DNA from: Candidatus Bathyarchaeota archaeon
Lineage (GTDB): Archaea > Thermoproteota > Bathyarchaeia > Bathyarchaeales > Bathyarchaeaceae
Length of the DNA: 64,000 nt
Direction of reading: 5' to 3'
Assembly (NCBI GenBank): GCA_963806645.1
Contig: CAWDYQ010000002.1
Span: 395,141-459,140, forward strand
In this document: positions 2 through 63,315 of the stretch, piece after piece
Numbering within the stretch: position 1 is the stretch's first letter
How the letters are laid out: each line of letters opens with the position of its first letter
Program-made: the position numbers and the translations under genes
The notes under the pieces: model-generated
Databases searched by the model: none
Seen by the model: only the letters and a program-made list of their open reading frames with translations
What the model was told of the DNA's origin: nothing

Positions 2-1093
2 ATAGTTGCACCCGTCCTTAGATGTTCTCCCTGCTCAAACGTCTTCATTTACGGAAAAACTGGAACAGGAAAAACAGCAGTCACCAAATATGTTTTGAAT
101 AAATTAACCTTTAAGGCAAATCAACTAGGAGCAACTATAGAAGTTTGTTACGTAAACTGTCGTCTGGCCGGTACTGAATATCGAATCCTCTCAAGCTTGT
201 GTGACGCTTTAGATGTGAAGGTTCCTTTCACGGGTTTGGCTGTCGGAGAAGTCTTTGACCGATTCAAAGACGGGTTAGACCAACAAAGAAAAATCTTCAT
301 CGTTGTCCTCGACGAAATAGATGCCCTGATAAAAGCCCGTGGAGACACTCTCCTCTACGAATTAACCAGAATCAACGAGACTCTTCGTCACGGCAGAATA
401 TCCATAATAGGAATCTCAAACGACCTCAGATTCAAAGAATTTTTGGACCCACGCGTTCTAAGTTCCTTAAGCGAAGAAGAAATAGTTTTCAGACCTTACG
501 ACGCAGCTGAACTCCAAGACATCCTCTTGAAACGTGCTCAAATAGCGTTTTTCGAAGGATCTCTGTTAGATAGCGCTGTGGCGTTGTGTGCTGCATTGGC
601 TGCTGCAGAACATGGTGACGCCCGACGCGCTTTAGACTTACTTAGAGTTGCAGGTGAACTTGCAGAACGAGAGGGTGTGAGCTGTGTTAGTGAAAAACAT
701 GTTCGCGAGGCAGAAAAACGTGTGGAACACGATCGAATTTTTGAAGTTTTAGAGAATCTTCCATTGCATTCCAAATTGGTTTTATGCAGTGTTTACTTGT
801 TGGGTAAAACAAAACTCAGCTATACTATTACTGGGGACATCTATGGAATATATTGTGAACTCTGCGATCAGTCAGGTCTATCTCCACTAACTCAAAGGCG
901 TGTAAGTGGTTTGATCAGCGAGTTAGATATGATAGGGTTGTTAAATGCACGTGTTGTTAGCATGGGTCGACATGGGAGATCAAAAAAAATTCGTTTAGGG
1001 ATAGGGCGGAGTCTTATTAGGAATGTATTTAATAATAGTGATCGATTCCGGGAACTGCTATGTTATGTTCCTAATTGTTTTGCTGGTATTTAG
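2..1093 (+). CDS. cdc6: Orc1/Cdc6 replication initiator, 5' end cut by window edge
   Basis: Frame is open from base 2 (the track starts at an internal TTG at 95). Walker A GKTGTGKT at 53-76, Walker B VVLDEID, GDARRALDLL sensor region, winged-helix-like C-terminus. Confidence 0.9.
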   Translation: MVAPVLRCSPCSNVFIYGKTGTGKTAVTKYVLNKLTFKANQLGATIEVCYVNCRLAGTEYRILSSLCDALDVKVPFTGLAVGEVFDRFKDGLDQQRKIFIVVLDEIDALIKARGDTLLYELTRINETLRHGRISIIGISNDLRFKEFLDPRVLSSLSEEEIVFRPYDAAELQDILLKRAQIAFFEGSLLDSAVALCAALAAAEHGDARRALDLLRVAGELAEREGVSCVSEKHVREAEKRVEHDRIFEVLENLPLHSKLVLCSVYLLGKTKLSYTITGDIYGIYCELCDQSGLSPLTQRRVSGLISELDMIGLLNARVVSMGRHGRSKKIRLGIGRSLIRNVFNNSDRFRELLCYVPNCFAGI

Positions 1094-3097: not shown

Positions 3098-4006
3098 ATG
3101 GAAGACTCGGACTTAATTGAACGAATAAATGAATTAAAAGAAAAGAAAAATGCTGTTATTCTTGTTCACAATTATCAGCGACCAGAAATATACAAAGTAG
3201 CAGATTATATCGGCGATTCCTACGGTTTAAGTAAAAAAGCTACACAGACAAAGGCTGACATAATCGTTTTCTGCGGAGTTGACTTTATGGCTGAATCTGC
3301 CTATATTTTGAATCCCACAAAAACTGTACTGATTCCAACTAAGATGGCGAAATGTCCGATGGCTGCTATGGTTGATGTTGAAGGTTTAAGAGAATTGAAA
3401 GCAAAGCACTCTAAAGCTGCCGTTGTAAGTTATGTAAATACAACCGCTGAGGTTAAGGCTGAATCAGACATTTGTTGCACTAGCTCTAACGCGGTAAAAG
3501 TGGTAAATTCATTAGAGGAAAATGAGGTCATCTTCGTACCAGATTCCAACTTGGCAAACTATGTGATGCGACATACTAGCAAAAAAATAATTCTCTGGAA
3601 CGGATGGTGTTATGTTCACAAAAAATTTTCTCCAGAAGGTCTTAGACACGCAAAAACTTTACATATAGATGCAAAAGTTCTAGTTCATCCTGAATGCATA
3701 CCGGAAGTTGTGGATTTAGCTGACGAGATTTGCAGTACAACTGGTATGATCAACTTCATAAAGCAAAGCCAAGATAAAAAGTTCATAATCGCCACTGAGA
3801 TTGGAATGCTTGAACGATTAAAGCGCATGTTCCCAGAAAAGGTCTTTTTTCAAGCACCACCTGGAGGAACCTGTATTCAGATGAAAAAAATTACTTTACC
3901 GCTTGTTTTAGAGGCTCTGGAGAAGGAGCAATTTAAAGTAACGGTTCCAGAAGATATTAGGGTCCGGGCTAAAAATGCTTTGGATAGAATGCTGAATGTG
4001 GTTTGA
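3098..4006 (+). CDS. nadA: quinolinate synthase NadA
   Basis: 302 aa with the NadA-like pattern (ILVHNYQ, VSYVNT, VHPEC). Heads a nadA-nadC-nadB run with overlapping stop/start codons. Confidence 0.85.
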   Translation: MEDSDLIERINELKEKKNAVILVHNYQRPEIYKVADYIGDSYGLSKKATQTKADIIVFCGVDFMAESAYILNPTKTVLIPTKMAKCPMAAMVDVEGLRELKAKHSKAAVVSYVNTTAEVKAESDICCTSSNAVKVVNSLEENEVIFVPDSNLANYVMRHTSKKIILWNGWCYVHKKFSPEGLRHAKTLHIDAKVLVHPECIPEVVDLADEICSTTGMINFIKQSQDKKFIIATEIGMLERLKRMFPEKVFFQAPPGGTCIQMKKITLPLVLEALEKEQFKVTVPEDIRVRAKNALDRMLNVV

Positions 4007-4953
4007 CATCTTGGACCGTCAAAAAATTGTTGAAATCGCCTACCAGAAAGGGAAAGAACTTAATCTAAACAATAAAACCTATCTTGAATGGCTGAACTCT
4101 TTTTTTTCGAAAGAATATAGTGACGACGTTGGAGCCGGTGATATAACTAGTAAAGCGATTCTAAAAAAAAATGAGCGCAGAATTGCCTTCTTGAATGTAA
4201 AAACTTCAGGGGTCATCGCTGGAGTCGAGGAAGTAAGCTATTTTCTCAAAAAACATCACCTAAATGTAAAGACTTATCAAAAAGATGGCGAAGAGGCTCT
4301 CAAGGGAAAAACCGTTCTGGAGATAAAAGGAAAACAAAAAGATATTCTGGCAACAGAAAGAATCGCCTCTAAATGTTTTGCAGAGAATGTCAGGAATAGC
4401 CACAGAAACAAAAAACTTAACTGAGTTGCTGAAAGGTCATAACACTCGAGTTACTGCAACCAGAAAAACACTTTTGAGGTATCTAGACAAGAAAGCAGTC
4501 TTCTTGGGTGGAGGTTTGACTCACCGTTTTGGGCTCTGGGATTCCATATTGATAAAAGACAATCACCTTGAAACCCTAAAAAGTGAAGGAATACCCGACT
4601 ACATCGAGAAAGCAATAACTAGGGCTTCAGCTTTTGCAGAAAAGGTGGGGTTCATAGAAATTGAAGTAAACTCACACGAAGAGGCTCTAAGGGCCACAAG
4701 AAAATTCAAAATTTTGAGGTTGAAGACGCCCTGTGTGGTTATGCTTGATAATATGGCACCTACTCAAATAGAACAGACAGTTGAGACTCTTCGTGAGGAA
4801 TCCCTCTATGACCATGTTCTTTTTGAGGCATCGGGCGAAATAACTCCCAAGAACATACTAGATTACGCTAAAAGTGGGATCGATGTTGCATCTTTGGGGT
4901 ATCTAACACATTCTGCCCATGTCTTAGATATGAACTTGGAGATGAAGATTTGA
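3996..4953 (+). pseudogene. nadC: nicotinate-nucleotide pyrophosphorylase NadC, reading frame broken once
   Basis: ORFs 3996-4424 and 4378-4953 together make one NadC. The conserved block TERIA|LNVLQRMSGIATETK is split between frames at about 4365-4370. Confidence 0.8.
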
Positions 4954-6573: not shown

Positions 6574-6684
6574 GCCGGGGTGACAGAGCGGTAATGTGCC
6601 GGTCTCGAAATGACTCAACTGTACGTCAGAAGACAACCGGTGGTGCTTGGCGCCACATGGGTTCAAATCCCATCCCCGGCGCCA
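6574..6684 (+). tRNA. tRNA-Ser(CGA) with canonical 37/38 intron and encoded CCA
   Basis: Acceptor GCCGGGG/CCCCGGC, discriminator G plus CCA. Anticodon stem CCGGT/ACCGG, loop CUCGAA..A with CGA at 6606-6608. About 25-nt insert at 6610-6634. Long variable arm GTGGTGC/GCGCCAC. T arm ATGGG-TTCAAAT-CCCAT. Confidence 0.85.
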
Positions 6685-11657: not shown

Positions 11658-12987
11658 ATGGAGATACTAAAAAAGGCACAAGAAATGCTTGAAGTGCACT
11701 CTCTTTGTGACCACTGTTTGGGAAGACAATTTGCCCTTCTTGGTTATGGACTCGATGATAAAAAACGAGGTGAAAATCTAAAGCTTCTTTTAACGATGAA
11801 AAATCATCAATTAGCGCTTTCCGGTAAGCAGGTAGGTTTTTCAAATTTAAGATTGTTGAGTTCAAATGGATCTTTCGAAATGGCCTCAGAAATACTTAAA
11901 AAAATGAGGAAGAGAGCTAGAAAAAAGAGTGAATGCTACCTTTGTCAAGACGTGTTTAAAAGCTTGGATATATTGGTTGAAAACGCTTTAGCAGCGCTTG
12001 AAAACTATGAGTATACTACATTCCTTGTTGGAATCGAGTTGCCTACTACCGTTGAGGAGCGGGAAGATGAGTTTAAAGCAAGGTTTGAAGTGGGTTACGG
12101 AGAGAGTATGCGAAACGAGTTCAGTCGCGATATTGGGAAAAAGATCTTTAGGCTTACAAATAAACCAGCTGAATACAAAAAGCCTGATGTTGTTGTTCTT
12201 GTTAAACCCTTTACTGGTCAAGCTATTCTTCAGTCTAATCCTCTCTATATTAAGGGGTTGTACAAAAAGCTAGTTCGTGGTATCCCTCAATCAGAGTGGT
12301 TTTGTAGAAATTGTAGAGGTGAAGGCTGTCAAAGATGCAACGGAACCGGCAAAATGTATTCTGAATCCGTTGAGGAGATAATTGCAGGGCCCCTATTGGA
12401 AATAACCGGAGGAGAAGGTGTATCTTTGCATGCGGCTGGACGAGAAGACGTGGACGTTCGGATGCTTGGTACAGGAAGACCATTCATTATAGAAGTTAAA
12501 AAACCCAGAAAACGATTTATTGATCTTAAAAATCTAACAGAACTCGTTAATAAAAAAGCCCAAGGTAAAGTCGAGGTTTTGGGTCTTGGTTTTGCAAGTA
12601 AAGATGATGTAAAACAATTGAAAAAAGCCGAAGGATCTTCGAAAATTTATCGCGTACCTTATCGAATTTGACAGAGAAGTCTCAGAAGAAGAACTAAAAA
12701 ATCTATCAAAAACCTTGACTAAAGCTAACATTCATCAACAAACACCCTTGCGAGTTTTGCATCGAAGAGCTGACCTAGTTCGAGAAAAGTACATATATGA
12801 GGCGAATATAAAGAGGTTGGCGCCTAACCGCGTAGAGATGAAAATACGTTGCCAAGGAGGGCTTTATATTAAAGAGTTGGTAAGCGGCAATGAAGGACGA
12901 ACCGTCCCTAGTATAGCCTCTATTATCAATGCTGAAGCAAAGCCTCTCGAGTTAGACGTTTTGAACGTTATTATGGAGGAAACTTAA
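11658..12987 (+). pseudogene. pus10: tRNA pseudouridine synthase Pus10, reading frame broken once
   Basis: N-terminal CDHCLGRQF and CxxC zinc motifs. ORF 11658-12671 continues in the next frame as IEFDREVSEEEL...QQTPLRVLHRRADLVR (to 12987). The break lies at about 12655-12660. Confidence 0.8.
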
Positions 12988-13686: not shown

Positions 13687-14250
13687 ATGGAAAGGAGCGA
13701 GAAGAGATACGAAGAATACGCTTACGTTTTGGATTATCTTCCCCATGGCCGGGCAGGGAGTCGACCAGGATACAGGGCCGGAGCCTTGGTTCAGGTTGTT
13801 GGAGAAGAATACTTCACGTTCCTCGAAGCAATAGCTAGAGAAGGAATGGCGCTCAATACTTCTGACAGAGTATATGTTGGAAAAGATTCCCGGAGAACAA
13901 TAACCTACATTATTGGGCGAATAAACTATGAAGATTTAACATCTAATGCAAAGATGGAACTTTCTGGAACAATAGAGAAGATAGTTATTAACCGAGAAAA
14001 ATGGTTCGTAAACTTCTTTAATACCGCCCAAGCCATAACTCCTAGGATGCATGCCCTTGAATTGATTCCAGGTATTGGGAAAAAGTATATGTGGCAAATT
14101 ATTGATGAAAGAGACCGAAAACCCTTTCAAAACCTAGAAGATTTACAGAATCGCGCCAACATGCCCACACCCTCCAAATTGATAACGAGGAGAATATTGG
14201 AGGAACTTGCTGGAGAAAGTAAATATAGACTATTTACGAGAGCACCCTAG
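13687..14250 (+). CDS. DUF655-family helix-hairpin-helix nucleic-acid-binding protein
   Basis: Start taken at MERSEKRYEEYAYVLDYLPHG. HhH-like LIPGIGKK. Conserved position upstream of ksgA. Confidence 0.7.
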   Translation: MERSEKRYEEYAYVLDYLPHGRAGSRPGYRAGALVQVVGEEYFTFLEAIAREGMALNTSDRVYVGKDSRRTITYIIGRINYEDLTSNAKMELSGTIEKIVINREKWFVNFFNTAQAITPRMHALELIPGIGKKYMWQIIDERDRKPFQNLEDLQNRANMPTPSKLITRRILEELAGESKYRLFTRAP

Positions 14251-15082
14251 TGGAAAATATTAATCTTCTTCAAAGGACAAAGCATCTTCTTCGTCTTTAC
14301 GGTTTTTCCCCCAAAAAACGTTTAGGACAAAACTTTACTGTCAACTACGACATACTGCAAGATTTAGTAGAAAATGCATCTTTAACTAAAAATGATGTTG
14401 TCTTAGAAGTTGGGGCTGGATTTGGTTTTTTAACCCGTCTTCTTTCAGACAGATGTAAAAAAGTTATTGCTGTTGAGATTGACCCCCAACTTGCAAATTT
14501 TTTAAGGAAAAACCTTAGTCCCTTAGTAATGTGGATTTGATAGAGGGCGACATTCTCAAGGTTTCTCTTCCTGATTTTAATAAGGTTGTTTCTGCTCCTC
14601 CATACTCCATTTCATCTCCGCTTCTGTTTCGTCTTCTAGAAACAAGATTTGATTTGGCTGTTCTGATTCTTCAGAAAGAATTTGCAGAGAGACTCGGAGC
14701 TCGAGTAGGGACAAAAGATTATGGAAGGCTAACCGTTTCAATATACTATCGGACGGATGTGGCGCTTCTGGATGTTGTCGCCCGAAAGATGTTTTATCCA
14801 CCCCCAGACGTGGATTCAATGATGTTGCAACTGAAACCAAGAGACCCACCTTTCTATGTTGAGGATGAAGCCCTCTTTTTTGAACTTGTTCGAGCACTAT
14901 TTACTCAAAGAAATAAGAAGGTAAGAAACTCTCTGATTCACTTCTTACGGAAACGTGAATTCCCAAGAGACGATGCTGTAAAATTGGCTGATTCTACGGT
15001 TTATAGCTCGAAAAGAGTTCGAGAATTAGCACCAGAAGATTTTGGAATTTTGGCTAACGAGTTAGCTACAAAATTTCGTTAA
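14250..15082 (+). pseudogene. rsmA: 16S rRNA dimethyladenosine transferase KsgA/Dim1, reading frame broken once
   Basis: ORFs 14250-14540 and 14531-15082. SAM motif VLEVGAGFGFLT in the first part. The ...NLS / LSNVDLIEGDILK junction needs a 1-nt shift at 14517-14524 (a ccc run). Confidence 0.8.
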
Positions 15083-22522: not shown

Positions 22523-22640
22523 AAAGTCGTCTTTTTTCCCATATATTGACTATTATATGGTAACATACTTCAATTCAATGAAGAATCAAACAGCTTAAAT
22601 TAGAGGTAGCTTAAACATAAATGCTAACGGAGATTTGACA

Positions 22641-23396
22641 ATGTTCAGGGCTAAAATGGCTGATGCAAAAATGTTGAAGGATATGATGGGTGCAATTTCT
22701 ATCCTTGTCGATGAAGCCACCTTTGACCTCACTGCAGATGGGATTAAACTTCGTGCAATGGATCCCTCGCGGGTTGCCATGGTTGATTTCGAGTGGCCTA
22801 AAACGGTTTTTGATGAATATTCTTGTAGCGATAATGCGAAAATGTGTATCAACATAAGTGAACTGCTGAAATTGCTTAGGAGAACCGGAAAAGATGAATC
22901 CGTTGAGCTCTCATTAGATGAAAAGACTGGAAAACTTAAAATTGCTATCAGAGGAAAATATTCTCGTACCTTCAATATGCCAACTTTGGAGGCTATGGAT
23001 GAAGAGGTTCCCACGCCAAAAGTCAATTTCAATGTAAAAGCTAAGACAACTACACAGGGATTACGCGAGGCCATAGAAGACGCTTCCTTAGTTAGCGATC
23101 ATGTTCGAATAGCGGCTGATAGCAAGAAGATGGTTATGAACGCTTCAGGAGATATTATGGGGGCTACTATTGAATTTAAGGCTGGAGATGACGTGCTTCT
23201 TGAAATATCAGCTAAAGAAGATTCTAAAGCAACTTTCAGTCTAAGTTACTTGTCAGAGATTCTAAAGGCGTCTTTGTCAACATCAGAAATTGTCATTATA
23301 GAGTTTTCAACAGATATGCCGATTAAACTGGATTTCCAGCAAGAAAAAGAAGGAAAATTAAAATTCTATTTGGCTCCTAGAATTGAAGTGGAATAA
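22641..23396 (+). CDS. pcn: DNA polymerase sliding clamp PCNA
   Basis: ATG at 22641. About 250 aa with a two-domain PCNA pattern (GIKLRAMDPSRVAMVDF..., FYLAPRIE C-terminus). Confidence 0.9.
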   Translation: MFRAKMADAKMLKDMMGAISILVDEATFDLTADGIKLRAMDPSRVAMVDFEWPKTVFDEYSCSDNAKMCINISELLKLLRRTGKDESVELSLDEKTGKLKIAIRGKYSRTFNMPTLEAMDEEVPTPKVNFNVKAKTTTQGLREAIEDASLVSDHVRIAADSKKMVMNASGDIMGATIEFKAGDDVLLEISAKEDSKATFSLSYLSEILKASLSTSEIVIIEFSTDMPIKLDFQQEKEGKLKFYLAPRIEVE

Positions 23397-23407
23397 TCAG
23401 CAAATAA

Positions 23408-24454
23408 TTGGAGGTTAAGCAGGTACTAACTGCTTACGACCGTGCAAAATACCCGTTCATTGGAAGAGCACCGCTAGTCATGTCAGAGAAATTGGAATAG
23501 ACTTTGACGAATTAGAAAGTGAAATGACTTTTACTCAGTTCTTCGATCGTGCAGAGGAACGTGTTGAAGAGCTCTACTCGACGAATCTGTTTATCTGAAG
23601 ACTAAACCAATAATTGAAAGAATGAAGGGAGATAAGAAATTGAGGTTTTTTCTTTTCCAATAGCGATTATGTTGGTTGTTGGAACTGAAGATTCTTTCAT
23701 AAAAAGTAGGTACGCATTAGCCGAAGCAAAGCGGGCGTCTGAGTTACTTCAGGAATGAGAAATAAAGAGAAATTATTGGGTATGCGCCAACCTTCGATTG
23801 GGATATAGAACGATTAGTCATGAGTCTGTTTGCTTACCTTACGTCTTTAGCTGTAGCTTTCCATTTTTCTTGAGGAATTGCAAGTTCGGTGTTGTTCATG
23901 ATGTCAGATGGAAACTTGTTAATCAGCGTATGATTAATGGGAAAGTTTACCTTACCGAGCGGAAATTAAGTCGTCTTTAGAAGAGGAAGTGCGGAAATAT
24001 ATTGAAGCAAGACTTGACACGAAGATAAAGTTTCATTCCTCCCGCTATTATGGTTAGAGTAAATAGGTTGAGGCAATTGGCTGCAGAGAAACAAGAACAA
24101 ATTACGGCTTGAAGAGATGCCTGACCGTGTTGTGATGGACGCCTTTCCTTCGTGTATTAAGGGTGTTTATGATAGGGTTGGAGCCGGTCGTCCAGCCTCT
24201 CACTTGGGTCGATTTGCATTGACTTCTTTTATGTTAGTATTGGAATGAGTTCGAATGATGTTTTCAAATTTTTTCGTTCAGTCTCTGACTTCAACGAACG
24301 GATGACTCGTTATCAGGTCGAACACATCGCCGGAAGTAGAGGTTCGGGAACAAAATATACTCCCCCAAACTGCTCTACGTTGCGTACACATGGTGTATGC
24401 ATCTCAATAGAACCAGAATGTAAAGGAGCAGTGAATCCGCTTAGTTTGTTATAA
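23408..24454 (+). pseudogene. priL: DNA primase large subunit PriL, multiply frameshifted with in-frame stops
   Basis: PriL blocks appear in the correct order but in changing frames: AKYPFI, VREIGIDFDEL, FSFPIAIMLV..RYALAEAKRA then TGA 23756-23758, WKLVNQ..GKVYLTERKLSRL then TAG, FPSCIKG..HLGRFALTSF, DFNERMTRYQVEHIAG..YTPPNCSTLRTHGVC..NPL. Confidence 0.85.
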
Positions 24455-24577
24455 AGAAAATTAAAAAATTTTCCTGAAGAGAAATCAACTAACGAGTAAA
24501 TGTTTTTTTGCTCTGTTTCTAGTCTTATTCTTCTACTGATCTATTCTTTAATATGCACGTTTTAAAACTTTGGCAAA

Positions 24578-24817
24578 TTAGTCATCTTCATATTCGCTTT
24601 TCGCAAGTTCACCAGAGAATGTGTCTTCATGTTCTTTTCTTTCCAACCCAAGATTCTTTTTCTTTGAGACTTTTTCTCTTCCCAGCATGAAACTGTATTC
24701 GGATTCTGTTATCTCGTCGTTCTCTAGCATCTTTTCCAACTGCTCTTCGTCGTAAATGTCCATTGTTTCAGTTTCTTTCTCTTCTTCGCGAAGAATTTTC
24801 TTTTTTTCTTTGCACAT
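24578..24817 (-). CDS. hypothetical small acidic protein
   Basis: 79-aa intact ORF, very E/D/K rich, antisense to the primase direction. No recognisable domain. Confidence 0.35.
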   Translation of the reverse strand: MCKEKKKILREEEKETETMDIYDEEQLEKMLENDEITESEYSFMLGREKVSKKKNLGLERKEHEDTFSGELAKSEYEDD

Positions 24818-25000
24818 CTTTGTTCAAAAAATACTGACTTTCATGTTTCATATAAATGCATCTAATGATTCATCAAATCTTGTTTTATGCGTCAAAAACA
24901 AAAAAATTTTCATAAAAGAACAGACCTAAAAAAGTTTGTTTATTTGGTCCAAGCCGTATTAATCCGTTTAAATATCATTTTTAATCTAATATTAAAGTCA

Positions 25001-26261
25001 ATGTTGGCGGAAAAATTAACTGTCTTCTTTATCGCAAAATTTCATTCAAGATAAATTCGCAGATTACTATAAACAGAATTTCGCTTCTATTATGGCTCCC
25101 TCCTCTCTCGAACGGCGAGAATTTGGTTTTATTCTACTTGAAAAAAAAGTTATGCTTAGACACCAGGGTTTTAGAGATGTAAACAATCTTAGGTCGACGT
25201 TAGCTACTATAGTACCCTCAGACGTCTATTATTCAAGCGCCTACTACGAACGTCCCGAGGAAGAGATGAAAGAAAAAGGATGGTTAGGTGCAGATCTAGT
25301 TTTTGATATTGACGCAGACCACATTCCGACTCCATGTTCCATAGTTCACGACATCTGGGTCTGCACTGGCTGTGGGGCTTCTGGAAGAGGCAAGCATCCA
25401 CAAATATGTCCCACTTGTGGAAATGGAAAATTCAAGGAAAAGACTTGGCCTTGCGAAGTTTGTTTAGAAGCCTCCAAGGCTGAGGCAATTAAACTGTTAG
25501 ACATCTTGACAGAGGATTTCGGATTTTCTTCAGACGTTTTAACAGTTGCATTTTCTGGGCATAGAGGATATCATGTTCATGTTGAGAGTGAATCGGTTCG
25601 TGGATTTGATTCGTTGGCTCGTAAAGAGATTGTTGATTACCTTATGGGAATCGGTTTAGAGGCGAAGTTTCATGGTTTGGGGAAGAGCTACAACCTGGGA
25701 GAAGGGTTTCTGGTCCAGACCTAAATGATCAGGGATGGAGAGGACGAGTGGCTAAGGGAACCTATGACTTCCTCCTAACTGCTTCAAAAGAAGATTTGCT
25801 TAACACTCGGTCTAAAGCCTGTGCATGTAAAATTCGTTGCTCACTCATAGAGATGCACTTCTGGAGAGCTGGAAAGAAAAGGGTCCTTGGGGTGTCATTC
25901 ATGGGTATAAGTTCAGATACTTGGAAAAAGATAGCTGAATATAGTGTCGAGATGCAGTCTGTGAAAATTGATACTGTTGTTACCCCGGACGTCAATCGGC
26001 TTGATAAGGCTCCCTAATTCATTACATGGGAAAACTGGTTTAAAAAAAGTTGAATTCTCTATTCGGGATATTGAAGATTTTGATCCTCTTAAAAGCGCAG
26101 TAGCTTTTAATGATGGGCTTGTAAAGGTTGATGTTTCAGAGGCTCCTCAATTTCGGGTGAAAGACGAAATTTGGGGTCCTTTTAAGAAACAAAAAGTTGA
26201 ACTACCCACTGCAGCAGCATTGATGCTTCTGTGTAAGGGAATGGCAAAGGTTGTGCAGTAA
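25001..26261 (+). pseudogene. priS: DNA primase catalytic subunit PriS, multiply frameshifted
   Basis: Catalytic motifs are present (DLVFDIDADH, Zn knuckle CTGC..CPTC, SGHRGYHVHV). The gene is spread over at least 6 frame segments: 25001, 25020-25724, 25700-25800, about 25800-25900, 25905-25995 and 25968-26261 (IRLPNSLHGKTGL). Confidence 0.85.
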
Positions 26262-26811
26262 ACTGTATAATGAACTCTATGAACTTTGGAGAAAAGAAAA
26301 AGAATCTTTACATATTCAGAGGCTCCCGAAGAATTTCTATGCTAAAATTGCCTCCTTTATACAAAAAAGTAAGGAGGAAAATCGAATGTTAGACAAAAAA
26401 ACAGCTAAAGCAAAATTGCTGAATTGCGAGGTTAAAAATGTCAAGTTTATGGTTGGGGAACTTTTTGAGCTCCGTTTAAAGAAACTTCAAGAAAACGGTA
26501 TATCTCGTGGAACGGTAGCTAGAGACGCTTTAACTGAAGAAGAGGAAAAGTTGTTTCTAGAAGTTTTTTCTCTAGCGGAAGCATATCATTCTTTTTCAAG
26601 AAATGTTCTCTGTGGGCAATTGTCAAAAATTGATATGGATACAAAATCTGACGTGGAAGTTTTGCGGTTCGTTCAGGAGATTCCTGAATTGGTTGGATCT
26701 GATATGAAGACATATGGTCCTTTTGGTCCAGAGGATATAGCGACTCTGCCGTCAGAGAATGCTCGAGTGCTAATTAAACAAGGAGTTGCCATAAAAGTAG
26801 AATTAAAATAA
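26251..26811 (+). CDS. GINS subunit (Gins15/51-type)
   Basis: 186 aa. N-terminal LYNELYELWRKE..LQRLPKNFY and C-terminal GPFGPEDIATLPSENARVLIKQGVA. Directly downstream of priS, as in other archaea. TTG start. Confidence 0.65.
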   Translation: MCSKLYNELYELWRKEKESLHIQRLPKNFYAKIASFIQKSKEENRMLDKKTAKAKLLNCEVKNVKFMVGELFELRLKKLQENGISRGTVARDALTEEEEKLFLEVFSLAEAYHSFSRNVLCGQLSKIDMDTKSDVEVLRFVQEIPELVGSDMKTYGPFGPEDIATLPSENARVLIKQGVAIKVELK

Positions 26812-61458: not shown

Positions 61459-61831
61459 TACCGGTTATCCTCGTTTTTGAGTTTTTGTCTGTAAATTCGG
61501 TCATGGTTTTTGTTGTAGAGCCAATAGCTATAGTTGTAGTCTTCACCGTGATATCGGGTGCTTATTGTGGCGTTGTTTTGTTTTAGAATGTGTAGGGCTC
61601 GGGTCCATTTTTCTTTCTGGTTGTCTTTTTGTTCTGTGACTTCAAAAGTTCCCAGTTTTTGGTATTGCGTTCCGTGTAGTTTAGGTTAAAGTTGGTTTCA
61701 GAAGCAGCTGGAATCTTTTGACTAACTATTCCGTGTTTTTGGGCGATTTGTTGTTTAAACTCATAACATGCGCTTTCTATTGCTGTTACAAACTCTAGAA
61801 AATTGGCTTCTAGTTTTTCTTCCAGGATCTT
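61458..61831 (-). pseudogene. ORF remnant: continues in frame past the TGA of the 61832-62050 gene, then needs one frameshift
   Basis: ...QQKMVKR-TGA-KILEEKLEANFLEFVTAIES...NTKNW in one frame. GTFEVTEQKDNQKEKWTRALHILKQNNATISTRYHGEDYNYSYWLYNKNHDRIYRQ in another. Ends with TAATG overlap onto the 595-aa gene. Confidence 0.5.
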
Positions 61832-62050
61832 TCACCTCTTAACCATTTTTTGTTGTGGTTGGTTGATCCAGAAAATCCAGCCTTTTGAAGTCTTTTGGCC
61901 GTTAATTTCTTCTTGAAGAAGCAGTTCTAGGCAATGTTTTAGTGCTGTGTTCCAGTTTCCGATTTTGCATTCTACTCTAATTGTTTCTATGCCCAAAGGA
62001 AGTTGGTTTGTTTTTAGGCAGTTTATTATTCTGTTTTTCGTTTCGTCCAT
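61832..62050 (-). CDS. small wHTH-like protein of the element
   Basis: 72 aa. May be the N-terminal part of a longer gene interrupted by TGA at 61832-61834. Confidence 0.4.
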   Translation of the reverse strand: MDETKNRIINCLKTNQLPLGIETIRVECKIGNWNTALKHCLELLLQEEINGQKTSKGWIFWINQPQQKMVKR

Positions 62051-62144
62051 CTCTCTGTTCGCCTTTTGTTCTAATGGACAAAATGGTTAACTTAACCACT
62101 CTCTGAAAGATGGCAGATCAAAGTTATATTCAGTTGAGGGACAT

Positions 62145-63210
62145 TTGGTGGTCACAAAAGCGTCAGTTGGTGACGGTTCCAAGGGGGATGAAGTTTCTTA
62201 TGATGTGCCTGAGGTGATAGTCAGGGAGCTTTCTAGTGGACCAAAAACTCCAAAGGAATTGAAAAATGCTGTTGTGGAATTTACTGGGGCTTGTGTTCGG
62301 GTTTATTATCGGCATCTGCATAAGCTTCAGGTTAGGCGTATTATTGAAGAAAAGGCTGAGATAAGCAGTATTGGTAAAGTAATTAGAAAATATGCTTTAA
62401 AAAAGCTTGATCTTCCAATGGATGTTGATCCGGTTACCTTACAGAGATTTCGTAAGCATGTATCTAATTTTTCTAAGGAGTATTGGGAGTTGAACACTTG
62501 GGTTGATTATAGTCCAAAAGGGTGGTCGTTTGCTGATGAAAATGATGAATTTATGGTTTATTTGATTCACTCATTTAATTGTGGTGACGCAGCTGTCTTG
62601 ATTTTCCAGGGATTGTAGAATACAACTTAGATCCTGATCGATATGTTTTTGATTGGCCTAATATTTTCAGGGAAGCCTTAAAGATTGTTTGTCCTATTCC
62701 CAGGTTTTTTAATCTTAAGAGAGTTTATCAAGCTAAATGTGTTCGAGACGTTAACAATTCTGAATCAAAGAAGTTTCCATTGTTTCTTGGGGTTAAAGGG
62801 TTTGTGAGTGTGGTGGTGTTAGACGGGCGGTCGCTGTTGTTGTCTGTAAAAGATCCAGTGGATCCTTCAGGTTTGTCGCGTAGAGTTTTTTCCATATTTT
62901 TCGGAGAAGTTGATTGATGAGTTAAATAGTGAATATAATTGTAGTGGGGTTCAAATTTTTAGTCCCGATGATGTTGGGTTGATGAGAAGGGCTGTGTTTT
63001 ATTTGGATGATGTTCTTGAGAAAAGGAGACTGCGTATTCCAACTAGGTATTCTTTGTTATTGGAGTGATCTTGGTTTGTTTAATTTTAGGTTTACTCCAC
63101 CAAGACCACGTAGTCTAGAGGAAGCATTGATGTTACGTGAATATATGGAAACTGGCGGCAATTTTGTTCATGCTTTAGCTGCAGCTGTTTCATTCTGGCA
63201 GATAGAGTAA
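62145..63210 (+). pseudogene. element gene (N-terminal wHTH-like), broken by at least 3 frameshifts
   Basis: 62145-62618 continues as GIVEYNLDPDRYVFDWPNIF...FFGEVD (next frame), then ELNSEYNCSGVQIFSPDDVGLMRRAVFYLDDVLEKRRLRIP, then the frame of 63007-63210. Confidence 0.5.
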
Positions 63211-63315
63211 ATCTTGATGAAAATAAACCTGTTAATCTAAAAAAACTAAAGTTTTAGTAAATATTGATTTTGTTGGGTTAAGTAATGTTTATGTCCGAAT
63301 TCAGACACATCTATT

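Follow-up and report, generated by a model that had tools for sequence, protein, structure and literature searches.

The sequence between 23.4 and 26.3 kb of the 64-kb window (the whole stretch of DNA analysed, 64,000 nucleotides) raises the question of whether this archaeon still has a functional replicative primase. Both subunits of the enzyme, PriL and PriS, are encoded there, and neither can be read as one continuous frame. Taken at face value, the locus describes an archaeon without the universal replicative primase, a major claim on archaeal replication. A first-pass annotation listed three options without choosing among them: a decaying redundant copy, priming of replication by another enzyme, or a locally very poor assembly. 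Its description of the region holds up, as the ORF map is fragmented and all the peptide blocks that it quoted are present.

The primase locus and its gene neighborhood

The primase genes are embedded in a gene order, pcn - priL - small ORF - priS - gins51, that is common to all Bathyarchaeum-like relatives compared (Table 1). In syntenic relatives, the interval between pcn and gins encodes an unbroken PriL of 341-366 aa and an unbroken PriS of 411-415 aa. Our set of relatives with intact primase includes the loci L001, L017 (the complete genome of Ca. Bathyarchaeum tardum) and L081-L088, and more than 200 database proteins. On the left flank, pcn aligns with its relatives in one gap-free HSP at 85-89% amino acid identity, with a dS of about 0.29-0.30 to the L085/L086 lineages. 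The small acidic ORF between the two primase genes aligns without gaps to the nucleotide sequences of L081-L083 and L086, matches its L017 homolog at 72.5% (tblastn) and has a dN/dS of 0.08-0.20; a Pfam search with it returned no family. Repeat- or secondary-structure-driven mis-assembly was considered and set aside, as no meaningful repeats that could cause it were found within 22.5-27.5 kb.

Table 1 Coordinates of the primase locus, its flanks and the other damaged genes of the window.
Feature	Position	Strand	Remarks
nadC	3996..4950	+	Split by one frameshift at ~4366; Pfam QRPTase_N/QRPTase_C on adjacent overlapping ORFs
pus10	11658..12984	+	Split by one frameshift at ~12660; Pus10_C positions 1-128 and 148-231 on two ORFs
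ksgA/RrnaAD	14250..15079	+	Split by one frameshift at ~14531; RrnaAD positions 3-76 and 80-256 on two ORFs
pcn (PCNA), left flank	22635..23396	+	Intact; Pfam PCNA_N/PCNA_C full length
priL, primase large subunit, orthologous copy	23408..24499	+	TTG start and TAA stop kept; frame broken
Indel tract 1	23462..24457	.	13 events in ~1 kb, ~1 per 77 bp
79-aa acidic ORF separating priL and priS	24578..24817	-	Intact; clade-conserved
priS, primase small/catalytic subunit, orthologous copy	25020..26261	+	CTG at the ATG start; 5 indels
Indel tract 2	25692..25998	.	Deletion at 25692; insertions at 25807, 25829, 25898 and 25998 (all 1-nt)
gins51, right flank	26251..26811	+	Intact; Pfam Gins51_C; 0 indels vs L087
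Unrelated conserved hypothetical gene	62154..63254	+	~365 aa in relatives; 5 single-nt indels

Lesions in priL and priS

Lesions were called by frameshift-aware alignment against the closest intact orthologs, which for priL is the 363-aa protein P0121. The alignment places 13 frame-disrupting events in priL: one 2-nt insertion (23462-3), five 1-nt insertions (near 23750, 23760, 24031, 24098 and 24440) and seven 1-nt deletions (near 23570, 23635, 23780, 23821, 23976, 24235 and 24457). Once the indels are skipped, P0121 is matched over its full length at 80.8% identity with zero in-frame stops. As deposited, PriL lacks the one continuous ORF of its relatives; the 13 edits produce a 363-aa ORF that begins and ends where its orthologs do and has no stop within it. 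The corrected protein matches the Pfam family DNA_primase_lrg (PF04104, E = 6.6e-30; PriL families are PF04104 and PF26466), and its Fe-S cysteines C232, C305, C314 and C321 all lie in invariant columns.

The choice of reference affects these calls. Alignment against the genus-level PriL of L001 undercounts the priL lesions, and the two in-frame stops that it produces are resolved by closer references into paired ±1 indels. An internal ATG as the PriL N-terminus, which needs two insertions, was likewise rejected when closer references pointed to the TTG at 23408. Counts from a low-gap-penalty nucleotide alignment, which calls too many indels in the central, naturally variable part of priL, were excluded.

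In priS, the first ~670 bp, encoding the catalytic core, and the last ~260 bp are clean, and the five indels lie between them. They recur in comparisons with seven genus-level relatives, with L081-L083 and with L087. A CTG occupies 25020-22, where relatives carry the ATG start. Owing to the five frameshifts and the CTG, the deposited sequence holds no continuous ~412-aa ORF with a start codon; six single-base edits yield a 412-aa ORF, the modal length of the family. The match to Pfam DNA_primase_S (PF01896), at E = 1.9e-10 on a 210-aa ORF, improves to E = 1.5e-16 for the corrected protein, covering profile positions 17-161 of 163. Corrected PriS is 92% identical to the intact protein P0001. 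The motifs VFDIDADH (catalytic DxD) and SGHRGYHVHV and the Zn-binding cysteines CTGC...CPTC are in frame, and the DxD, SGxRGxH and Zn-cysteine columns are invariant across 14 sequences, that of the window included.

The first-pass counts of at least 7 disruptions in priL and about 6 in priS thus prove conservative for the former, with 13 events found by alignment, and right for the latter (five indels plus the CTG). Each of the two stop codons that it singled out, TGA (23756-58) and TAG (23978-80), does exist in its own frame; both are by-products of the frameshifts and not nonsense substitutions, none of which is left in priL or priS once the indels are removed.

Spectrum and clustering of the lesions

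The lesions are short and of both signs. Insertions and deletions number 10 and 8 in the primase tracts, all of 1-2 nt and mostly outside homopolymers, and the inserted bases are a mixture of T, A, C and G. No event larger than 2 nt was found in either gene. In real prokaryotic pseudogenes, lesions show a deletion bias, variable sizes and slippage associated with runs; the deletional bias is reportedly the subject of work by Mira, Ochman and Moran from 2001.

The events are also strongly clustered. At a background rate of 3 single lesions per ~61 kb, finding at least 18 lesions within 2854 bp has a probability of about 6e-32. This rate omits five indels at 62.6-63.2 kb and is thus too low for the DNA outside the flagged region. 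The two tracts are separated by a gap of ~1.2 kb without lesions, within which 910 bp of coding sequence is clean (p ~3e-6 at tract density). The five priS indels are confined to 307 of 1240 bp (p ~0.015), and lesion boundaries do not follow gene boundaries. The closest comparison contig, L087, is 93% identical at the nucleotide level and is not of the same species; against it, 3189 bp of flanking coding sequence contain 0 indels. Exact look-ups with four proteins of the window had no match, a 38-mer spanning the end of pcn and the start of priL matched no metagenome contig, and another 38-mer reached only relatives at 93% and 83%.

Further lesions are present in unrelated genes of the window. 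Single frameshifts upstream, reported earlier in nadC (~4.37 kb), pus10 (~12.66 kb) and ksgA (~14.53 kb), are real and were confirmed by three-frame reading. That census missed a second cluster, at 62154-63254, where a conserved hypothetical gene carries deletions at 62587, 62811, 62864 and 63194 and an insertion at 63066. Homologs of this gene are 330-370 aa long, and the 157-aa ORF of the window matches just their N-termini. Alignment with P0242 gives 89.8% identity over 62418-63017, including three of the deletions, and P0243 aligns over the whole gene at 53.5% identity with all five events; neither alignment contains an in-frame stop after the indels are skipped. With this cluster added, insertions and deletions number 11 and 12. 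Nearby on the minus strand, a pair of ORFs at 61586-62086 with one in-frame TGA between them resembles two small genes and not a lesion.

Selection on the corrected genes

Once corrected, the two proteins are as conserved as those of intact relatives. Of the 160 PriL sites at which 9 intact relatives are invariant, one has changed, as has one of the 259 PriS sites at which 13 are invariant; in the same scoring, the intact relatives themselves have changed at 0-4%. Their amino acid identity to relatives falls on the regression obtained for intact genes, with residuals of +2.0 for PriS and -2.5 for PriL (sd 2.3-3.4). The dN/dS check on the reconstructed ORFs that the first-pass annotation proposed gives 0.10 for priS against L082 and 0.15 for the part within the indel tract; the corresponding values for intact pairs are 0.09 and 0.16. 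For priL it gives 0.19 over the gene and 0.11 for its C-terminal domain, compared with 0.10 for one intact pair; the excess in the overall value comes partly from unresolved compensating indel pairs and the naturally variable region. Substitution density in priS is 9.7% in the tract and 10.0% in the clean 5′ part. The coding information of the primase has stayed under purifying selection to this day.

These values bear directly on the idea that both native primase subunits have recently become true pseudogenes and have since collected ~19 neutral indels, with priming taken over by a second PriSL, a PrimPol or DnaG. In favour of this idea, the sequence as deposited does contain the frameshifts, and both subunits of a single complex are affected. 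Other housekeeping genes of the window are frameshifted too, which could mark a degrading genome, and the two priS loci (L066/L072) in the Bathyarchaeia assembly CP070679.1 indicate that duplication exists in the class. However, 19 neutral indels predict several-fold more neutral substitutions, and none can be detected: 2 of 419 invariant sites have changed, dN/dS is 0.10-0.19 (even the higher value is far below 1), and substitution density is equal inside and outside the tract. Neither gene shows relaxed selection, and the mixed lesion spectrum of an evolutionary pseudogene is also lacking, as there are no nonsense substitutions, no deletion bias, no event above 2 nt and no preference for homopolymers. 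The lesions sit in sub-gene tracts that spare the priS catalytic core, and ksgA, pus10 and nadC would be implausible as further pseudogenes in a free-living archaeon. We consider such a decay very unlikely.

Two of the options listed at the outset are unsupported. A decaying redundant copy is contradicted because the affected copy is the single syntenic ortholog rather than a spare and shows no relaxed selection, nonsense substitutions or larger deletions. Priming by another enzyme is unsupported because the primase coding information is under purifying selection to the present; in addition, tblastn found no second primase of the priSL, PrimPol or DnaG type within the 64-kb window. A literature search on primase loss or primase pseudogenes in Bathyarchaeia returned nothing relevant.

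High conservation of the corrected frames is also what a recoded gene would show, with the frameshifts decoded by programmed ribosomal frameshifting, transcriptional slippage or RNA editing. Set against this, the ~19 sites are of both signs and have no common slippery motif, stimulatory structure or inserted base. Relatives have no conserved slippery or editing site in common with the window, and 0 of more than 200 carry any of these shifts. Insertion/deletion RNA editing is not known from archaea. Recoding has next to no probability here.

Mosaic divergence of the priL-priS segment

The primase genes differ from their surroundings in divergence. Relative to the L086/L087 lineage, dS is 0.15-0.33 for pcn, the priS 3′ end, gins, HTH, L44e, S27e and aIF2a, and 0.5-0.9 for priL, the small ORF and priS codons 1-328. 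Omega is low throughout the discordant segment and its flanks. Against L087, the change point falls at 25992 and the last indel at 25998, and this right boundary is suggestive. Against L086, the change points at ~23644 on the left and 25479 on the right are not sharp, and the left one matches the position of the first indel only loosely.

The diverged segment of ~2.6 kb that holds both tracts suggests that sequence from a second population or a gap-fill was stitched in. Such a chimeric or strain-switch origin is suggested rather than delineated by boundaries that are mostly not sharp, and the discordance with the flanks could also have arisen by natural homologous recombination that has nothing to do with the lesions.

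The lesions themselves might instead stem from a real event: homologous recombination or gene conversion would have brought in a diverged priL-priS segment, with ±1 indels left behind by error-prone repair synthesis. The lesion region roughly matches the segment with 2-3x the synonymous divergence of the flanks from the sister lineage, and the change point at ~25992 adjoins the last indel. The event would, however, inactivate an essential complex, and its left boundary is fuzzy. An unrelated gene at a distance of 36 kb holds an equivalent cluster, and there are single lesions elsewhere; assembly quality explains this more simply, and a chimeric assembly accounts for the same discordance. We know of no described repair process that gives ~1.4% ±1 indels without substitutions, and we regard this origin as scarcely credible. 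An inactivation of both PriSL subunits that has only just happened, perhaps after import of the diverged segment, with another primase replicating the genome, has a very small chance of being correct; if true, it would be the first known case of an archaeon living without PriSL.

A probable assembly artefact

We infer that the damage to priL and priS is a poorly polished or chimeric patch of the assembly, with a probability of roughly 0.85. The reading is drawn from the sequence: the lesions are indels only, their removal restores full-length, normally conserved orthologs, and the same type of lesion affects the unrelated genes nadC, pus10 and ksgA and the 62-kb cluster. Among the initial options, these observations support the third, a locally very poor assembly. 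priL and priS would then be normal, functional, syntenic primase genes whose apparent destruction reflects a poor local consensus. The two tracts (~1.0 kb and ~0.3 kb) may carry random ±1-nt errors as in under-polished or low-coverage long-read sequence. A segment of ~2.6 kb may have been stitched in by the assembler from a second related, probably low-coverage population, or as a gap-fill, and never polished.

The cause of the indels is thus presumably technological. As the tracts are not contiguous, a patchy model is needed and not a simple single gap-fill. The non-homopolymer context is atypical of residual error in polished nanopore, HiFi, 454 or Ion sequence and fits better with raw or low-coverage single-molecule noise.

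The probable chimeric or unpolished patch at ~23.4-26.0 kb has practical consequences. Annotation, pangenome analysis or metabolic inference based on this assembly would miscall priL, priS, nadC, pus10 and ksgA as pseudogenes or absent, and at least one more gene with them. The tests that separate artefact from decay here (indel-only spectrum, invariant-site violations, frameshift-corrected dN/dS and flank comparison) are read-free and can be reused for other "essential-gene pseudogene" flags.

Comparison with known systems

A conserved archaeal replication gene cluster pcn-priS-gins is said to have been described by Berthon et al. in Genome Biology in 2008. The gene order of this cluster and the PriS/PriL heterodimer are found here as well, whereas the two ORFs are discontinuous as deposited, and a clade-specific acidic ORF lies on the opposite strand between priL and priS.

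Multiple frameshifts and apparent premature stops are features that the locus has in common with pseudogene decay, for example in Mycobacterium leprae and reductive genomes. Unlike prokaryotic pseudogene decay, the locus shows no excess of substitutions, no nonsense, no deletion bias and no multi-base deletions; its dN/dS stays at 0.1-0.2, and its lesions are restricted to sub-gene tracts.

The closer likeness is to errors of long-read and hybrid assemblies. Gene-fragmenting indel errors in long-read assemblies were reportedly pointed out by Watson and Warr in 2019. The Kastor report (PMC12007338) documents frameshift errors "pseudogenizing" genes in long-read assemblies. Errors of this class have in common with the window that 1-base indels split conserved genes and are healed by few edits, that unrelated genes are hit, and that the damage is patchy, arising where coverage or polishing is inadequate. 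In contrast to such errors, those in the window are mostly outside homopolymers and clustered in two tracts (~1 per 75 bp) on a contig that is otherwise mostly clean. Unlike uniform residual error, the affected tract coincides with a phylogenetically discordant segment, which hints at a strain-switch or gap-fill chimera.

Frameshifts in the primase genes

The genes for the primase large (priL) and small (priS) subunits, located between pcn and gins51, are broken up in the ORF list over 23.4-26.3 kb, and all of the peptide blocks quoted in the first-pass annotation were found in three-frame translation. We used a frameshift-aware protein-to-DNA alignment of the window, with references chosen progressively closer. 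The priL gene aligns over its full length, from TTG 23408 to the stop at 24497-99, with P0121 (an intact PriL of 363 aa) at 80.8% identity, with 13 frame-disrupting events and no in-frame stops. In priS, the same five events recur in the alignments to every set of references: seven genus-level relatives, the three closer contigs L081-L083, and the 93%-identical contig L087; deleting or adding those bases gives a 412-aa ORF, the modal family length. With 13 and five events mapped, the earlier description of both genes as shattered is correct. Two stops had also been listed, TGA at 23756 and TAG at 23978. The triplets are real, but they are read solely owing to upstream frameshifts, and no nonsense substitution occurs anywhere in priL or priS.

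Frame-disrupted genes of the window and the events mapped in them
Feature	Position	Strand	Description
priL	23408-24499	+	primase large subunit
priL 2-nt insertion	23462-3		alignment to P0121
priL 1-nt insertions (n=5)	~23750, 23760, 24031, 24098, 24440		alignment to P0121
priL 1-nt deletions (n=7)	~23570, 23635, 23780, 23821, 23976, 24235, 24457		alignment to P0121
priS	25020-26261	+	primase small subunit
priS deletion	25692		nucleotide alignments
priS insertions	25807, 25829, 25898, 25998		nucleotide alignments
nadC	3996-4950		single frameshift; QRPTase_N and QRPTase_C on overlapping ORFs
pus10	11658-12984		single frameshift; Pus10_C profile positions 1-128 and 148-231 on two ORFs
ksgA (RrnaAD)	14250-15079		single frameshift; RrnaAD positions 3-76 and 80-256 on two ORFs
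Conserved hypothetical gene	62154-63254	+	winged-helix-like N-terminus; split into three or more ORFs
Single-nt indels in this gene (n=5)	62587, 62811, 62864, 63066, 63194		homolog alignments
ORF fragments of this gene	62145-62615, 62588-62914, 62986-63207		

At 25020-22 priS has CTG where all relatives have an ATG start. The gins gene likewise has no ATG at its orthologous start (26251-26265), which bears on whether the priS CTG counts as a lesion; the codon facing the Met of L083 is CTG (Leu) in the window, and Leu is also found there in L081 and the related contig L086. The true gins start may be an upstream TTG (26251) that overlaps the priS stop.

Relatives and gene order

The source organism is a Bathyarchaeia archaeon, related to Candidatus Bathyarchaeum at the genus level. 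When the longest priS ORF served as query in a translated search, 80 loci were retrieved, all of them in Bathyarchaeia-type MAGs, with a top match of 84% amino-acid identity. Over 15.8-29.1 kb the window is collinear with the related locus L001 and the complete Ca. Bathyarchaeum tardum genome, in the order TFS - pcn - priL - small ORF (opposite strand) - priS - gins51 - HTH - L44e - S27e - aIF2alpha. PriL (341-366 aa) and PriS (411-415 aa) are unbroken in all relatives examined. So many and such diverse sites, none of them present in any relative, rule out programmed recoding.

The small acidic ORF between the two genes (24578-24817, minus strand, 79 aa, MDIYDEEQLEKMLENDEITE...) is conserved in position and sequence in the Bathyarchaeum-like clade (B. 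tardum, L081-L083 and L086), with dN/dS of 0.08-0.20. It matched no Pfam family and may represent a replication-module partner that has yet to be characterised. Separately, two priS loci, equal in identity to the query and some 700 kb from each other, are present in the related Bathyarchaeota bin695 chromosome assembly (CP070679.1), through either a genuine duplication or one made by assembly.

Selection on the corrected genes

We treated as decisive the question of whether substitutions had built up alongside the indels. Corrected PriS is 75-81% and corrected PriL 66-74% identical to ten relatives. When PriS and PriL identity was regressed on that of eight control genes, with intact relative pairs as the fit, the residuals of the window were +2.0 (sd 2.3) for PriS and -2.5 (sd 3.4) for PriL, with -3.8 for the undamaged gins; by this measure the corrected proteins are indistinguishable from intact orthologs. 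Only one of 259 sites invariant in 13 intact PriS proteins is changed (S to T), and one of 160 invariant in nine intact PriL, where the relatives themselves score 0-4%. Neutral time enough for about 19 indels in 2.3 kb should bring several-fold more substitutions, of which about one third would be expected in the 419 invariant codons; the two changes found there do not exceed the rate of intact relatives.

Corrected priS, compared with L082 as its closest relative, has a Nei-Gojobori dN/dS of 0.10 over the whole gene and 0.15 in the indel tract; two intact relatives give 0.09 and 0.16 in the same comparison. The priL value is 0.19 for the whole gene and 0.11 for the C-terminal domain, compared with 0.10 in one intact pair; this modest excess lies mainly in a stretch that is naturally variable and near compensating indel pairs left unresolved. 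Measured against L082, the density of nucleotide substitutions is 9.7% within the priS tract, as against 10.0% for the clean 5' portion. These ratios, together with the status of this copy of priL and priS as the single syntenic ortholog and not a spare, speak against the earlier suggestion of a decaying redundant primase.

Spectrum and distribution of the lesions

The lesions are 1-2 nt throughout, with insertions and deletions about equal (10 and 8 in the primase tracts, 11 and 12 with the cluster at 62.6-63.2 kb added). Inserted bases are mixed (T, A, C and G), and most sites lie outside homopolymer runs. Prokaryotic pseudogenes show a deletional bias, with deletions of varied size, and spontaneous ±1 frameshifts prefer mononucleotide runs. 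Noise of ±1 nt in random context is the residue of single-molecule reads where the consensus is low-depth or unpolished. A genuine recent pseudogenisation, with an alternative primase taking over, is very unlikely: it conflicts with a lesion pattern that is substitution-free, insertion-rich, sub-genic and non-specific, and the affected copy is not a spare.

Clustering is highly non-random. At a base rate of three single lesions per ~61 kb, which excludes the five-indel cluster at 62.6-63.2 kb, the probability of at least 18 lesions in 2854 bp is about 6e-32. Gene boundaries are disregarded: the lesions fall into two tracts, 23462-24457 and 25692-25998, with roughly one event per 72 bp, and between them the 240-bp small ORF and the initial 670 bp of priS are clean (p ~3e-6 at tract density). 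All five priS indels fall within 307 of 1240 bp (p ~0.015), and the last 260 bp are free of them. The alignment to L087 shows 3189 bp of coding flank without an indel (gins, HTH, L44e, S27e, aIF2alpha and the 5' part of the following gene); the indels in these flanks are confined to intergenic DNA, as real divergence would give.

Lesions in other genes

The three single lesions noted previously are real frameshifts in the conserved housekeeping genes nadC, pus10 and ksgA; those in nadC and pus10, at least, resemble insertions of one nucleotide outside homopolymers. A second error-like cluster, absent from the earlier list, breaks one conserved gene of ~365 aa (homologs 330-370 aa) near the 3' end of the window. 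Alignment to a close intact relative, 89.8% identical over 62418-63017, shows three of its five indels, and alignment to a full-length homolog with 53.5% identity shows all five; once they are skipped, no stop is left in either alignment. Patchy indel errors in an assembly are a far more plausible explanation than a free-living archaeon frameshifted in priL, priS, ksgA, pus10 and nadC together.

Further features were observed in the window. Two short same-frame ORFs at 61586-62086 (minus strand) are separated by one TGA; the first resembles a whole winged-helix-like protein of 72 aa, and the second is either a separate gene or a read-through or lesion. An Rfam tRNA match at 6574-6681 (plus strand, 108 nt, 48 bits), not reported by ARAGORN, is probably an intron-containing archaeal tRNA. 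An Orc1/Cdc6 gene (2-1090, plus strand) with AAA+, Cdc6 lid and winged-helix domains runs past the 5' end, and there may be a replication origin close by; cumulative GC skew climbs near-monotonically over the window.

Ancestry of the primase segment

Three independent contigs (L086, L087 and L088) represent a lineage from which the flanks (pcn 3' end, last 84 codons of priS, gins, HTH, L44e, S27e, aIF2alpha and the next gene) show a synonymous divergence of 0.15-0.33. For the segment made up of priL, the small ORF and codons 1-328 of priS (~23400-26000) it is 0.5-0.9, or 2-3 times higher, and omega is steady at 0.08-0.19. The flanks place the window as sister to L086, with L083 outside the pair; priS and the small ORF put all three at equal distance from one another. 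With L087 as reference, the best change point falls at 25992, adjoining the last indel at 25998, and the left edge has no sharp boundary. The lesion-bearing region thus roughly overlaps a segment of different ancestry, which is either a recombination or an assembly chimera. The assembly may have switched to, or been gap-filled from, a second related population at low coverage, which would explain the poor polishing of the segment. This discordance is supportive rather than decisive, since natural homologous recombination would yield it too. We consider an indel shower accompanying such recombination extremely unlikely; we know of no mechanism for it, and it leaves the distant 62-kb cluster unexplained.

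We attribute the primase lesions, with a probability of roughly 0.85, to a locally very poor, possibly chimeric, assembly stretch. This agrees with one of the options first proposed: the lesions are indels only, substitutions are not in excess, and unrelated genes are hit as well. On this reading the broken primase is not a real biological feature, and its practical value lies in warning of the quality of this contig. For long-read assemblies, it is documented that error-induced frameshifts and premature stops pseudogenize genes (PMC12007338).
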